Assembly (NCBI GenBank): GCA_021650915.1
Contig: CP091279.1
Span: 120,001-152,000, forward strand
Length of the DNA: 32,000 nt
Direction of reading: 5' to 3'
Source of the DNA: Candidatus Brocadia sp.
Lineage (GTDB): Bacteria > Planctomycetota > Brocadiia > Brocadiales > Brocadiaceae
The notes under the pieces: model-generated
Told to the model about the DNA's origin: nothing
What the model saw: only the letters and a program-made list of their open reading frames with translations
Databases searched by the model: none
Translations under genes and position numbers: made by a program
Shown here: in pieces, positions 26,369 through 32,000 of the stretch
Layout of the letters: every line of letters begins with the position of its first letter
Numbering within the stretch: the first letter of the stretch is position 1

Positions 26369-26404
26369 CTAGAATATAAAAAACACCAAACACCCTGCAT
26401 CGCC
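26369..26404. repeat. 36 bp direct repeat, first copy (second copy at 28634-28669)
   Basis: CTAGAATATAAAAAACACCAAACACCCTGCATCGCC directly precedes the left end of both IS-A copy C and copy D. In the second copy the CTAG is also the last 4 nt of copy C. Confidence 0.9.
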
Positions 26405-26507
26405 TTAACCCGACATTAGCAATTCGCGCCCAAAAAAGTTTATTTTTGGGCAAGAGTCGCCAGGAAACCCGTGATATTCAAGGGGTGAATTTTCAAAACG
26501 GCTTGTA

Positions 26508-28558
26508 GTGCCGACCTACCCTCTTGACGCATGCAGGGGGAAGTGCGAAAATGCTCGCATGCTTCTCCGGGAAAAGACACGAACGAAAGATGGAAAAACC
26601 CACCGTTATTGGAGCATGGTGGAGAACCGCCGGGTCAGCGGAAGAAGGGTGGTGCAGCGGCAGGTTCTCTATTTGGGAGAACCCAATGACAACCAACGCG
26701 CTGGGTGGGTTCGGACGATAGAGGCGGTGTCGGGTAAAGAACCCAGGCCAAGACAACTGGCATTGTTTCCGGACGACCGGGAAGCCATGCCGATACCGGA
26801 TGGTGAGACCGTTCAGGTGAGATTGGACAAAATAGAGCTGCGCCATCCACGGGAGTGGGGAGCAAGCTGGTTGGGATTGTATGTATAGTATTACTGTATA
26901 AAAACTTCTTTTTTCTGTGAGTTTTTTCACAAACCCCTTTCAGGAGGTACCGTTTTTTATGAGTGAAAGATTGCTTCGCTTCACTCGCAATGACAGCATG
27001 CAGTGTACCATCAAAGTGCATGGCCGGTGTCATTGCGAGGGCCTTTTCCGAAGCAATCTCCCCGCTTTCATAAAGGAAATTTGGTTGTGGCTGTGCCGCG
27101 CTATGGAATATGCTGGAACTGGACACATTCTGGAGGATGCGTCTGCCGTCAAGCCGGAAGGGGACAATCTGGTTGAATATACTGAAGGCGCTTGTCTGTT
27201 ACCGGTTGATCGATCCGGGAAGCGAATTTCGTTTTCACCGTGAGCGGTACGTGCGCAGCGCAATAGGCGATCTGCTGGGAGAGGATTATTCCCTGGCGCA
27301 GAAGGACAAGGCGTATCGTTGTTTGGATTTGTTGCTTGAGCATCGGGACGAGCTGTTTGCCTATTTAAAGGAGAAGTGGGGCAAGCTCTTTGGGGCGAAG
27401 TACGATGTACTGCTGTATGATTTGACGAGTACGTATTTTGAAAGTGACCCACCTCCGACTGGATCGGGGAGTAAGAAACGGTTTGGATATAGCCGGGACA
27501 AACGTTCGGATTGCGTGCAGGTGGTAGTGGCATTGGTGTTAACGCCGGAAGGATTTCCCGTGGCCTACGAAGTGTATCCGGGCAATACCAGAGACACCGC
27601 AACGCTGGAGGAATTTCTGGATCGGATTGAAAAGCAGTATGGGAAATTCCGGCGCACCTGGCTTATGGATCGCGGTATTCCAACGGAGGAGATGTTGGAA
27701 AAGATGCGTGAGCGCGGGATTGATTATTTGGTTGGGACTCCGAAGGGACATTTGACGCGAGTAGAAAAACCGTTGCTCGAACAAACCTGGATGCAGGCGA
27801 GGGAGAGCGTCCGCGTGAAAGTTCTTCGGCAGGAATCGGAGTTTTACGTTTACGTGGAAAGCCATGACCGGGTGTCTAAGGAGCGTGCCATGCGTAGGCG
27901 CAGACTCAGACGTCTGTGGGTGGGCTTGCGCGAACTTCGCAATCGAAAAGCCCTCACGCACGATGACCTGCTCATGCATATTGGCGCGTTAAAGAGAGAA
28001 GCCGGACGAGACTACAGGCTGGTCACGATCTCCATTCCCAAACCGCAGGAACCGGTCAATGAGAATACGTTCCGGTTCAGTTTGGATCGGGAACGCCTGA
28101 GGCAGGCGTATCGGCGCGAGGGGCGTTATTTGCTTCGTTCCAACATGCAGGCCACCGCGCCAGAAACCGTCTGGGAAAATTATTTGCTGTTGACACGGAT
28201 AGAACAGGCATTTAAGGACTTGAAGGGGTCTCTTTCCGTCCGCCCCCTATGGCATCAATTGGAACGGAGAATTGAAGCCCATATCTTTGTTTCCTTTTTG
28301 GCTTTTTGTCTCCACACGACACTGCGCAATCTTGCGCGGGGGAGGGCCGGAGGGCTGACGTCTGAAGCGATTTTGGAAAAACTGTCGGGCATTCAAATGA
28401 TAGACGTTCATTTACCGACCACGGATGGCCGTCATATTGTCATGAGTCGTTATACCCAGCCGGAGAAGGACGTTTTACTCCTTTTGGCACAATTGGGATT
28501 AACGCTTCCTGAACAACCGCCGCCCAAGGTTTACGCATCCGGACAGGTCGGCCTGTAG
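26508..28558 (+). pseudogene. IS-A transposase interrupted after ..WLGLYV by the 215 bp element
   Basis: ORFs 26508-26888 and 27110-28558 are the N- and C-terminal parts. The junction in intact copy E reads LYVWNMLELD. Confidence 0.85.
26887..27101. mobile_element. 215 bp insertion without terminal inverted repeats, carrying a long imperfect palindrome and flanked by TAT
   Basis: Absent from copies B and E. TAT lies on both sides (26884-26886 and 27102-27104). Palindrome: GATTGCTTCG..CTCGCAATGACA (about 26970-26995) pairs with TGTCATTGCGAG..CGAAGCAATC (about 27029-27058). Confidence 0.75.
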
Positions 28559-28633
28559 TGCCGACCTTTTTACATGACCCCTTGATTTTACTGGCTTAGC
28601 GGGTTGTATACCCCTCGAATTGCGAAAGTCGGG

Positions 28634-28669
28634 CTAGAATATAAAAAACACCAAACACCCTGCATCGCC
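28634..28669. repeat. 36 bp direct repeat, second copy
   Basis: Identical to 26369-26404. Confidence 0.9.
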
Positions 28670-29258
28670 TTAACCCGACATTAGCAATTCGCGTCCAAAA
28701 AAGGTTATTTTTGGGCAAGAGTCGCCAGGAAACCCGTGATATTCAAGGGGTGAATTTTCAAAACGGCTTGTAGTGCCGACCTACCCTCTTGACGCATGCA
28801 GGGGGAAGTGCGAAAATGCTCGCATGCTTCTCCGGGAAAAGACACGAACGAAAGATGGAAAAACCCACCGTTATTGGAGCATGGTAGAGAACCGCCGGGT
28901 CAGCGGAAGAAGGGTGGTGCAGCGGCAGGTTCTCTCTTTGGGAGAACTCAATGACAATCAACGGGCTGGGTGGGTTCGGACGATAGAGGCGGTGTCGGGT
29001 AAAGAACCCAGGCCAAGACAACTGGCATTGTTTCCGGATGACCGGGAAGCCATGCCGATACCGGATGGTGAGACCGTTCGGGTGCGGTTGGACAAAATAG
29101 AGCTGCGCCATCCGCGGGAGTGGGGAGCAAGCTGGTTGGGATTGTATGTATAGTATTACTGTATAAAAACTTCTTTTTTCTGTGAGTTTTTTCACAAACC
29201 CCTTTCAGGAGGTACCGTTTTTTATGAGTGAAAGATTGCTTCGCTTCACTCGCAATGG

Positions 29259-29264
29259 TAATAT
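29259..29264 (+). promoter_or_regulatory. -10 box (TAATAT) of the same junction promoter
   Basis: It starts at the second nucleotide of the IS110 left end and faces the transposase gene. Confidence 0.55.
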
Positions 29265-29396
29265 GAAAAAGCAGCGTCCTTCCAAGGAGGTTAAAAAGCC
29301 TTGAATAGGCGATAACCTTTTGTGATATTAAATATCATAAAGGCTTTAGACCACCAATTAAGGTGGTAAGTCTTTAAACCTTGGAAAGGAGGCTGT

Positions 29397-30407
29397 ATGA
29401 TAAAGTATATAGGATTGGATGCACATTCGTCAACATGTACATTCAATGTGACGGATGAAAGAGGGAGGGAAGTAGACAACACTACGATTGAGAGCAATGG
29501 CCGGCTTTTGGTGAAGTATGTGAGGGGAGTGGAGGGTGTTAAGAAACTGACCTTTGAAGAGTGTGAATTAAGCAACTGGCTGTATGAGATATTGAGACCA
29601 GAAGTAGATGAGTTGATCGTATGCAATCCAGTAGCAAACGGAGACTACAAGAAGAAAAAGACGGACAAGATGGATGCCAGGAAGCTGTCGAATCTTTTGC
29701 GAGGAGGTTTTCTCGTACCGGTATATCATGATGGTTCAAAGAGGGAGAGGTTAAGGAGTTTAATGTCCGGGTATCAGGATTTCATTGAAGAGGGTGTGAG
29801 GCTAAAGAACCGATACAAATCCTTATTTCGGAAAAGTGGGAAGAAAATCAAAGGTGAAGCGTTATATAACGACGAGAGTTTCCTGGAAGGATTAGAGCGA
29901 AGAGACTTTCAATTTATTGGCACGCAGATCTATCAGCTTTTAGAGAAGATGGAAGAAGGCAGGCAGGAATATGTAAAAGAGATCGTTCGATGCAGTAAGG
30001 GATTTAAAGAGATAAAATATCTCAAGAGCATTCCCGGCATTGGGAGTATCCAGGCGGCGAAGATCGTATCACAGGTAATAGACCCGGAGAGGTTTAGCAG
30101 TAAGTACAAATATTACAGCTACTGTGGGTTGGTGAGGCATAAGAGGATAAGTGATGGGAGGGGATATGGGAGTGAAAAGATTTGGGGAAATCGGATATTA
30201 AAATGCGTATACAAGATGGCAGGACATTCGGTTTTAAAGGGTAAGAGCGGTTTAAGGAACTATTACGATACCTTGCGGTTGAAAGGCATCGGTCATGACA
30301 ATGCCTATAATGCAGTATGTCGTAAGATAGCGGCAATATCTTTAAGCGTGTGGAGGAAGAGTGAGAAATATAATGACAGACTGATCACTGGCAATCTAAT
30401 CAAGTAA
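29397..30407 (+). CDS. IS110-family DEDD transposase/recombinase
   Basis: 336 aa. N-terminal RuvC-like DEDD region (IGLDAH.., FEECE.., KTDKMDARKL). C-terminal Tnp domain with SIPGIGSIQAAKI and ISDGRGYGSEKIWGNRILK. AAGGAGG lies upstream of the ATG. Confidence 0.9.
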   Translation: MIKYIGLDAHSSTCTFNVTDERGREVDNTTIESNGRLLVKYVRGVEGVKKLTFEECELSNWLYEILRPEVDELIVCNPVANGDYKKKKTDKMDARKLSNLLRGGFLVPVYHDGSKRERLRSLMSGYQDFIEEGVRLKNRYKSLFRKSGKKIKGEALYNDESFLEGLERRDFQFIGTQIYQLLEKMEEGRQEYVKEIVRCSKGFKEIKYLKSIPGIGSIQAAKIVSQVIDPERFSSKYKYYSYCGLVRHKRISDGRGYGSEKIWGNRILKCVYKMAGHSVLKGKSGLRNYYDTLRLKGIGHDNAYNAVCRKIAAISLSVWRKSEKYNDRLITGNLIK

Positions 30408-30414
30408 AACAGGG

Positions 30415-30580
30415 CAAGAGGGCATGAAAGGCTGGTTCGCACCTGTTTTCTTGAGAGAGGGATGAGATCCACGTGTCATTGACCCAAAGAGGTCCAACGC
30501 AATGGTTGATCCGCCCTCGTTTAAATCGAAAATTACCATGCTCAGCAAAGAGCACCGATAGATGACTGAAAACCGATTGC
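30415..30580 (+). ncRNA. Candidate bridge (guide) RNA in the 3' non-coding end of the IS110-family element
   Basis: Two internal loops of the same build. Loop 1: GUGUCAUU-[GACC CAAAGA GGUC]-CAA-CGCAAUGGU. Loop 2: AUUACCAU-[GCUC AGCAAA GAGC]-ACCG-AUAGAUGAC. The strands match the target and the joined donor ends around the ATG core (see findings). Confidence 0.5.
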
Positions 30581-30742
30581 CGAAGGTATTTCAGAGAAGG
30601 TAGTAGAAAGAAAACGATAATAATCTGTTTGTCATTCATGCACTCAGGACTTTATGGCTTGATTAGCCTCAGTTAAGCGGAAGGGACGCATGGCAAGAAA
30701 ACATTTCTTTGGTTTTTTTGTCAACAGGGATAATATTTTTTC

Positions 30743-30748
30743 TTGACA
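30743..30748 (+). promoter_or_regulatory. -35 box (TTGACA) of a promoter completed only when the IS110 ends are joined
   Basis: TTGACA lies 13 nt from the right end. With the ATG core and the first G of the left end, the spacer to TAATAT (29259-29264) is 17 nt. Confidence 0.55.
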
Positions 30749-32000
30749 TGCTTTTTCATAGATGACAACGTACAATATGTCATCGGAGGCATAGTCGGTG
30801 TCATTGCGAGGGCCTTTTCCGAAGCAATCTCCCCGCTTTCATAAAGGAAATTTGGTTGCGGCTGTGCCGCGCTATGGAATATGCTGGAACTGGACACATT
30901 CTGGAGGATGCGTCTGCCGTCAAGCCGGAAGGGGACAAGCTGGTTGAATATACTGAAGGCGCTTGTCTGTTACCGGTTGATCGATCCGGGAAGCGAATTT
31001 CGTTTTCACCGTGAGTGGTACGTGCGGAGCGCAACAGGCGATCTGCTGGGAGAGGATTATTCCCTGGCGCAGAAGGACAAGGCGTATCGTTGTTTGGATT
31101 TGTTGCTTGAGCATCGGGACGAGCTGTTTGCCTATTTAAAGGAGAAGTGGGGCAAGCTCTTTGGGGCGAAGTACGATGTACTGCTGTATGATTTGACGAG
31201 TACGTATTTTGAAAGTGACCCACCTCCGACTGGATCGGGGAGTAAGAAACGGTTTGGATATAGCCGGGACAAACGTTCGGATTGCGTGCAGGTGGTAGTG
31301 GCATTGGTGTTAACGCCGGAAGGATTTCCCGTTGCCTACGAAGTGTATCCGGGCAATACCAGAGACACCGCAACGCTGGAGGAATTTCTGGATCGGATTG
31401 AAAAGCAGTATGGGAAATTCCGGCGCACCTGGCTTATGGATCGCGGTATTCCAACGGAGGAGATGTTGGAAAAGATGCGTGAGCGCGGGATTGATTATTT
31501 GGTTGGGACTCCGAAGGGGCATTTGACGCGAGTAGAAAAACCGCTACTCGAACAAACCTGGATGCGGGCGAGGGAGAGCGTCCGCGTGAAAGTTCTTCGG
31601 CAGGAATCGGAGTTTTACGTTTACGTGGAAAGCCATGACCGGGTGTCTAAGGAGCGTGCCATGCGTCGGCGCAGACTCAGACGTCTGTGGGTGGGCTTGC
31701 GCGAACTTCGCAATCGAAAAGCCCTCACGCGCGATGACCTGTTCATGCATATTGGCGCGTTAAAGAAAGAAGCCGGACGAGACTACAGACTGGTCACGAT
31801 CTCCATTCCCAAACCGCAGGAACCGGTCAATGAGAATACGTTCCGGTTCAGTTTGGATCGGGAACGCCTGAGGCAGGCGTATCGGCGCGAGGGCGTTATT
31901 TGCTTCGTTCCAACATGCAGGCCACCGCGCCAGAAACCGTCTGGGAAAATTATTTGCTGTTGACACGGATAGAACAGGCATTTAAGGACTTGAAGGGGTC

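Follow-up and report, generated by a model that had tools for sequence, protein, structure and literature searches.

An IS1111-group RNA-guided element of Candidatus Brocadia carries at its two ends the halves of a putative promoter that would be assembled only in the excised circle

We propose that a mobile element in the genome of Candidatus Brocadia sp. keeps the two halves of a promoter for its transposase gene at opposite ends, and that these would be joined only when the element is excised as a circle; we give this reading a probability of about 0.78. Sequence data and comparison with relatives support this interpretation. The junction-promoter principle is already known for the family, and its sequence support in the present element is strong. 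Positions are those of the window, the whole stretch of 32,000 nt that was analysed, which corresponds to 120001-152000 of contig CP091279.1.

The element, its copies and its target

The element is 1504 nt long (window positions 29258-30761), is flanked on both sides by ATG and encodes a single 336-aa protein (29397-30407). It lies within an insert of about 220 nt that interrupts a host IS in its DDE transposase gene, and in this window copy the element has the same orientation as the split gene. The adjacent tandem copy of the host IS carries the empty site, ...ctcgcaATGaca..., with its ATG at 26988-26990. The main features of the element and its site are as follows.

29255..29257, + strand: left copy of the ATG core, on the target side; each of the four seekRNA guide strands has a match to the core
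29258..29396, + strand: left end and 5' non-coding region, 139 nt, terminating in the RBS GGAAAGGAGG ahead of the transposase ATG
29397..30407, + strand: DEDD transposase/recombinase gene, 336 aa (Pfam PF01548 and PF02371; NF033542 at 130 bits)
30762..30764, + strand: right copy of the ATG core, placed by the sequence, 11 copies and the guide strands
26980..27036, + strand: unoccupied target in the neighbouring host element, a hairpin-type repeat made of ctcgcaATGaca, about 30 nt and tgtcattgcgag

The whole genome (4.05 Mb) holds 11 copies of the element, with the ORF intact in nine, frameshifted in one and interrupted by an insertion of about 1.85 kb in one. Each of the 11 starts with GTAATATGAAAAAGCAG, finishes with CTTGACATGCTTTTTCATAG and occupies the site ctcgcaATG|aca, and the two junctions have only the ATG in common. 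The genome contains the target 12-mer CTCGCAATGACA 244 times, where 0.5 occurrences would be expected; the 12-mer forms both arms of the hairpin-type repeat, and copies of the element are found in either arm. The earlier note had deduced the ends and a single ATG core from comparison with the empty site, and had held that copies with other ends would speak against them. The 11 identical copies, many empty sites and the covarying seekRNA guides described below bear this deduction out, with the same ends in 11/11 copies.

A guide RNA downstream of the gene defines the same ends

Following the logic of the seekRNA and bridge RNA described by Siddiquee et al. (PMC11187229) and Durrant et al. (PMC11208160), we recognized four short strands, all at 30470-30572, in two stem/internal-loop modules within the 354-nt 3' non-coding region.

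30450..30600, + strand: seekRNA/bridge RNA, recognized by guide strands, covariation and compensatory stems
about 30470-30483 and 30497-30509, + strand: strands of the target-binding loop, from seekRNA guide matches
about 30528-30539 and 30555-30572, + strand: strands of the donor-binding loop, from seekRNA guide matches

In the target-binding loop, the 5' strand GTGTCATTG complements the top strand CAATGACAC, that is ATG and the right target, and the 3' strand CGCAATGG reads the same as the target top strand; CGCAATGGT corresponds to the left target, ATG and the initial two bases of the left end. In the donor-binding loop, the strand ATTACCAT complements ATGGTAAT (ATG and the left end), and the strand ATAGATGAC corresponds to the right end, ATG and the initial two target bases.

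We gathered 94 related loci with protein identities of 53-98%; their sources are many metagenomes as well as MAGs (Brocadia-like, Omnitrophota, Endomicrobiales and Nitrospinota). Among the roughly 50 elements having both ends, the target guide strands covary with the real flanks, on the left (GCAatg, GGAatg, AGAatg, AGGatg, GGGatg, TAAGatg and CGAGatg) as well as on the right (ATGaca, ATGatt and ATGtat), and the seekRNA stems show compensatory changes in eight pairs. An Rfam search of the element returned no family at E<=1. Read in this way, the guides 3' of the gene are an independent confirmation of the ends and the ATG core.

Placement in the IS1111 group

The 336-aa protein contains the domains DEDD_Tnp_IS110 and Transposase_20, with matches to PF01548 (43 bits, cutoff 29) and PF02371 (41 bits, cutoff 21). 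Its score against the NCBIfam model NF033542, "IS110 family RNA-guided transposase", is 130 bits with respect to a cutoff of 140, just below the threshold, which makes it a divergent member of the IS110 family. It matches PDB 9mty weakly, and its identity to any plasmid-borne IS110-family protein is at most 26%, the best relatives there being at 25-26%. Insertion in the 11 copies is site-specific and in one orientation, with no target duplication beyond the common ATG core, as in the IS110 family.

One criterion for the IS1111 group is a pair of subterminal inverted repeats of 11-13 bp, with asymmetric extensions of 7 bp on the left and 3 bp on the right, so that in the circle the repeats stand 10 bp apart (PMC11187229). 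The element carries a perfect 12-bp subterminal inverted repeat, formed by TATGAAAAAGCA and TGCTTTTTCATA.

29262..29273, + strand: left subterminal inverted repeat, TATGAAAAAGCA, covarying with the right repeat in relatives
30749..30761, + strand: right subterminal inverted repeat, TGCTTTTTCATA, and terminal G (letters TGCTTTTTCATAG), forming 13 nt of the promoter spacer

Once the ends are joined, 10 bp (AGATGGTAAT) separate the repeats, counting the 11-bp repeat common to relatives, which fits 7+3 provided that the crossover falls within the ATG. The non-coding regions measure 139 nt on the left and 354 nt on the right, with the guide RNA downstream of the gene for the transposase. For IS1111-group seekRNAs the complement of the target top strand precedes the bottom-strand match (PMC11187229), and the seekRNA of the element follows the same order. 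Based on the RNA 3' of the gene, the 12-bp subterminal repeat, the 10-bp gap and this order of the guides, the element is an RNA-guided IS of the IS1111 group (IS110 family), a placement made by layout. The label IS110 given to it previously holds at the family level, as PF01548 and PF02371 indicate, while the layout makes the IS1111 group the better name.

Joining the ends would assemble a promoter

We took as a junction promoter (Pjunc) a pair of -35 and -10 boxes that lie in opposite ends of an element, come to stand 16-18 nt apart only when the ends abut, and face the transposase. The element has such a pair, TTGACA-N17-TAATAT with a TG upstream of the -10 box, and the pair is missing from both integrated junctions.

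30743..30748, + strand: -35 box TTGACA, adjoining the right inverted repeat on its upstream side
29259..29264, + strand: -10 box TAATAT (TAATAT, TAACAT or TAAAAT in relatives)

Between the left ATG and TAATAT stands a single G, at 29258. Joining the right end to the left end through one ATG yields TTGACA, the 17 nt tgctttttcatagATGg and TAATAT, facing the transposase, with the spacer made up of 13+3+1 nt. TAATAT agrees with TATAAT in four of six positions, with T1, A2 and T6 kept, so that the joined promoter scores 10/12 against the sigma-70-type consensus, which may not be the primary sigma specificity of the host. Together with the G after it, the TG of the ATG core adds an extended -10 element (TGnTAATAT, here TGgTAATAT). 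In the integrated state, the hexamer 17 nt past TTGACA is CAACGT (30766-30771), the left flank of this copy offers TTGCTT at 17 nt (3/6), and neither integrated junction of this copy holds a promoter-like match of at least 8/12. The two boxes, their 17-nt joined spacer and CAACGT had all been read in the same way in the earlier note, and the sequence agrees with it on each; the extended -10 was absent from that note and the left flank unchecked. Its description of the promoter as near-consensus is slightly generous at 10/12 rather than 11/12, with the TG of the extended -10 speaking in its favor.

Conservation of the split promoter and alternative readings

We compared 48 distinct joined junctions of relatives from several phyla, with transposase identities down to 58%. 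The split promoter scores at least 10/12 in 44 of them. The -35 box is TTGACA in 43, TTGACC in two, TTGACT in one and TTGCTA in two; the -10 box is TAATAT in 24, TAACAT in 14, TAAAAT in eight and another hexamer in two (TAAnAT in 46/48); and the spacing is 17 nt in 48/48. The last 20 nt at each end are also constrained by recombination. As the -10 box overlaps both GTAA, the target of the donor guide, and the left inverted repeat, its conservation is not independent evidence, and the -35 box is the informative half. The -35 box carries 1.85 bits per column, against 0.72 in the mirror positions 14-19 of the left end and 0.79 in the 26 nt upstream of it. Moreover, TTGACA is constant in relatives whose neighbouring inverted repeat has undergone paired compensatory substitutions.

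An alternative is that TTGACA is kept as a recognition or architectural site of the right end for the recombinase-seekRNA complex, with an incidental likeness to a -35 box. TTGACA does adjoin the right inverted repeat, and terminal positions are all highly conserved. It is also alike in five of six positions to ATGACA, the core with the right target, and a genomic scar, ttcgcaATGACA-TGCTTTTTCATAG-ATGaca, suggests that recombination or deletion is possible at this spot. However, TTGACA does not covary with the right target, being constant where the target is ATGatt or ATGtat, and for this reason we rejected the idea that it mimics the right target. On the side of the right end, the seekRNA donor guides extend no further than 4 nt from the core. 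A promoter requires exactly the distance seen here, 17 nt, to a TAnnAT box preceded by a TG, and the same layout is active by experiment in ISEc11 and IS621. We consider this alternative improbable.

About equally improbable is that expression takes place mainly in the integrated state, by read-through of the transcript of the host element or from the extended -10 with a weak -35 in the flank, and that the joint adds little. Some expression is needed ahead of the first excision, TG-TAATAT exists in the integrated state, read-through was both sufficient and required in IS621 (PMC13626964), and ISPpu9 offers a precedent for an element without a junction promoter (PMC12288879). Against this, no other conserved plus-strand promoter, for the transposase gene or for the seekRNA, was found in either non-coding end of the relatives, the integrated left ends of which reach at most 8/12. 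A -35 in the flank is at best 3/6 and depends on the site, and half of the genomic copies lie in the opposite arm, where there is none. Such expression would also leave the invariant TTGACA unexplained. Finally, a chance product of AT-rich ends is hardly credible: matches of at least 10/12 do occur in this genome at about 0.18 per kb per strand, two of them on the minus strand of the element, but they arise across only 0.4% of random joints in one orientation (20,000 random joins, this genome), and the match is conserved in the relatives while flanking positions vary.

A second complementarity between the ends

The two ends share a further block of complementarity, between positions 17-29 of the left end and a block 72-84 nt from the right end.

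29274..29286, + strand: left half of the second complementarity, GCGTCCTTCCAAG, covarying with the right half
30678..30689, + strand: right half of the second complementarity, CGGAAGGGACGC, covarying with the left half

The exact complement averages 10.1 nt in cognate pairs and 6.7 nt in non-cognate pairs, and the helix is represented by at least 12 different sequences. As the block adjoins the left repeat, positions 5-29 of the left end pair with the right end in two blocks, and together with the subterminal repeats the second complementarity makes up a helix of about 23 bp. On the right-end side the helix is interrupted by about 58 nt, which contain a conserved hairpin and the -35 box. Comparing pairing as RNA and as DNA, we found the G.U and A.C exceptions to be balanced and few.

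The left block starts about 3 nt downstream of the predicted start of the junction promoter (about position 14 of the left end), suggesting that the 5' end of the junction transcript may pair just past the seekRNA. It is conceivable, although doubtful, that this pairing builds a panhandle or an RNase III-type processing stalk bracketing the transposase gene and the seekRNA. The block also includes CCTTCC, which resembles an anti-Shine-Dalgarno sequence and may point to a coupling to translation. If true, this would be an undescribed layer, at the RNA level, that couples circularization to the maturation of the guide RNA or to translation.

Proposed mechanism

We picture the junction promoter at work as follows. 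In the chromosome the promoter halves stand 1.5 kb apart, with the -35 inside the right end and the TG and -10 at the extreme of the left end, and low-level read-through would supply the first recombinase and seekRNA. By excision through the ATG core these would release the element in circular form, creating the joint ...TTTTTCATAG, a single ATG and GTAATATG..., in which TTGACA, the 17-nt spacer, TG and TAATAT would form a strong sigma-70-type promoter directed into the left end. Transcription, predicted to start at about position 14 of the element, would run through the 5' UTR and the transposase gene to the seekRNA downstream, all in one RNA. The boost in expression would thus be confined to the transposition intermediate, and reinsertion into another CTCGCAATGACA arm would split the promoter again. 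The ends, the core, their geometry, the guides and the conservation of boxes and spacing are observed; circle formation, activity of the promoter in the host, the start of transcription and co-transcription of the seekRNA are the steps that we infer. A joint of right end, ATG and left end was found in none of 401 Planctomycetota genomes or the 94 related loci, as expected of a rare, transient intermediate.

Significance and comparison with known junction promoters

The current view of the mechanism is unchanged by this finding, which would extend the design of a promoter present only in the circle to a clade of IS1111-type RNA-guided elements that is divergent and uncharacterised. Members of the clade are found in MAGs of Omnitrophota, Endomicrobiales and Nitrospinota as well as in anammox Planctomycetota. 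With guides, ends and promoter readable side by side, the roughly 50 natural variants may be of use for the annotation of such elements and for the mining of compact bridge/seekRNA recombinases.

That junction promoters are known in the family, as stated in the earlier note, is correct, and such promoters are active, in elements of the IS1111 as well as the IS110 group (PMC11187229, PMC11208160, PMC13626964, PMC12288879). Active junction promoters in ISEc11 and ISEc21 are described in PMC11187229, which cites Prosseda 2006 for the Pjunc of ISEc11. According to the same paper, ISEc11 shares with the present element the subterminal repeats, a non-coding region and seekRNA 3' of the transposase gene, a circle of abutted ends, and a -35 in the right end with a -10 in the left end, no other promoter having been seen; its junction transcript is proposed to contain the transposase gene and the seekRNA. 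The two elements, which we compare by description, differ in that activity was demonstrated for ISEc11 and is predicted for ours, and in the target, which is a 12-nt arm of a palindromic repeat here rather than GTGAAAATACTG.

Junction promoters were also described for IS621 and five orthologues (PMC11208160), and IS621 combines weak read-through expression when integrated with a boost after excision (PMC13626964). IS621, of the IS110 group, resembles our element in its DEDD recombinase, in a guide RNA with two loops for the recognition of target and donor on either side of a short core, and in a promoter reconstituted across the joint of right and left ends. In IS621, however, the core is the dinucleotide CT and the left end contains the guide RNA, immediately behind the promoter, whereas our element has an ATG core, its RNA 3' of the gene, and long subterminal repeats. 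In Pseudomonas putida, ISPpu10 has a junction promoter while ISPpu9 forms circles without one (PMC12288879), which means that some family members are without the feature. Like our element, the two have palindromic repeats (REP) as insertion sites; they belong to the IS110 group.

IS4321/IS5075, of the IS1111 family, share with the element a subterminal repeat of 11-12 bp, 10 bp between the repeats when joined, a sigma-70-like joined promoter with 17-nt spacing, and a target in the inverted repeat of another mobile element. The joined ends of IS4321 on plasmid R751 read TTGCAA-N17-GATAAT. Its register is shifted by about 5 nt, the -10 straddling the joint and the -35 lying 4 nt upstream of the right repeat, whereas in our element the -10 is entirely in the left end and the -35 adjoins the repeat; IS4321 is also without a strong second complementarity between its ends (6 nt only). 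Junction promoters are known as well from the copy-out-paste-in DDE elements IS911, IS30 and IS21. The DDE transposases of these are unrelated, their inverted repeats are terminal, they make target duplications and they use no guide RNA, but they too assemble a -35 and a -10 from opposite ends in a circle or tandem joint.

A second complementarity between the element ends, and features of the 5' UTR

Beyond the subterminal inverted repeats of the IS1111-group element, we observed a second, covarying complementarity between its left and right ends, joining window 29274-29286 with window ~30678-30689. This second complementarity is also present in loci L031-L106 (related elements collected from other genomes and metagenomes); it is 10-14 nt long and occurs in at least 12 sequence variants, and no mention of it was found in the IS110/IS1111-family literature compared. 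The ~58 nt between its right-end block and the right repeat contain the -35 hexamer (TTGACA) and the following feature:

Window ~30693-30723, conserved hairpin, between the right block of the second complementarity and the right repeat

Two further hairpins lie in the 5' UTR (window 29310-29390), where they are maintained through compensatory changes among relatives, for example GATAT-TAA-ATATC vs GATC-N-GATC. An anti-Shine-Dalgarno-like CCTTCC adjoins GGAGG in the same region, and this arrangement may control translation.

State of the genomic copies and a solo right-end remnant

Nine copies of the element in this genome are intact, with 98.5-100% identity. The remaining two are one at contig positions 3812911-3816269, with a ~1.85-kb insertion in its left non-coding region, and one, near position ~597385, in which the transposase gene is frameshifted.

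A solo right-end remnant was also observed on the minus strand of the contig at ~1161850-1161880, reading ttcgcaATGACA-TGCTTTTTCATAG-ATGaca. Here the target is intact; directly after it come the element's terminal 13 nt, and after these a second ATGACA. This remnant may be the scar of an aberrant excision; alternatively, it may have been left by a deletion via the TGACA common to the target and the -35 region.

The host element and the target repeat

The host DDE (IS4/IS1634-like) element forms a tandem repeat (window 26369-28633 and 28634-32000), and the transposase gene of both units is interrupted by the same ~220-nt insert, which carries the target hairpin:

Window 26980-27036 and genome-wide, target hairpin-type repeat

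The genome contains 244 occurrences of the 12-nt target, CTCGCAATGACA, where 0.5 would be expected. This target constitutes both arms of the repeat, arranged as ctcgcaatgaca, ~30 nt and tgtcattgcgag, and bordered by gattgcttcg and cgaagcaatc. To the right of the window copy, the hairpin loop (window 30765-30798) has many substitutions relative to the majority of host-repeat copies. The element copy at genome position ~2032276 has an identical flank, and the variant loop is therefore common to two loci. Relatives of the element in other phyla are housed in the same kind of repeat, and because of this the target looks like a widespread REP-like repeat.
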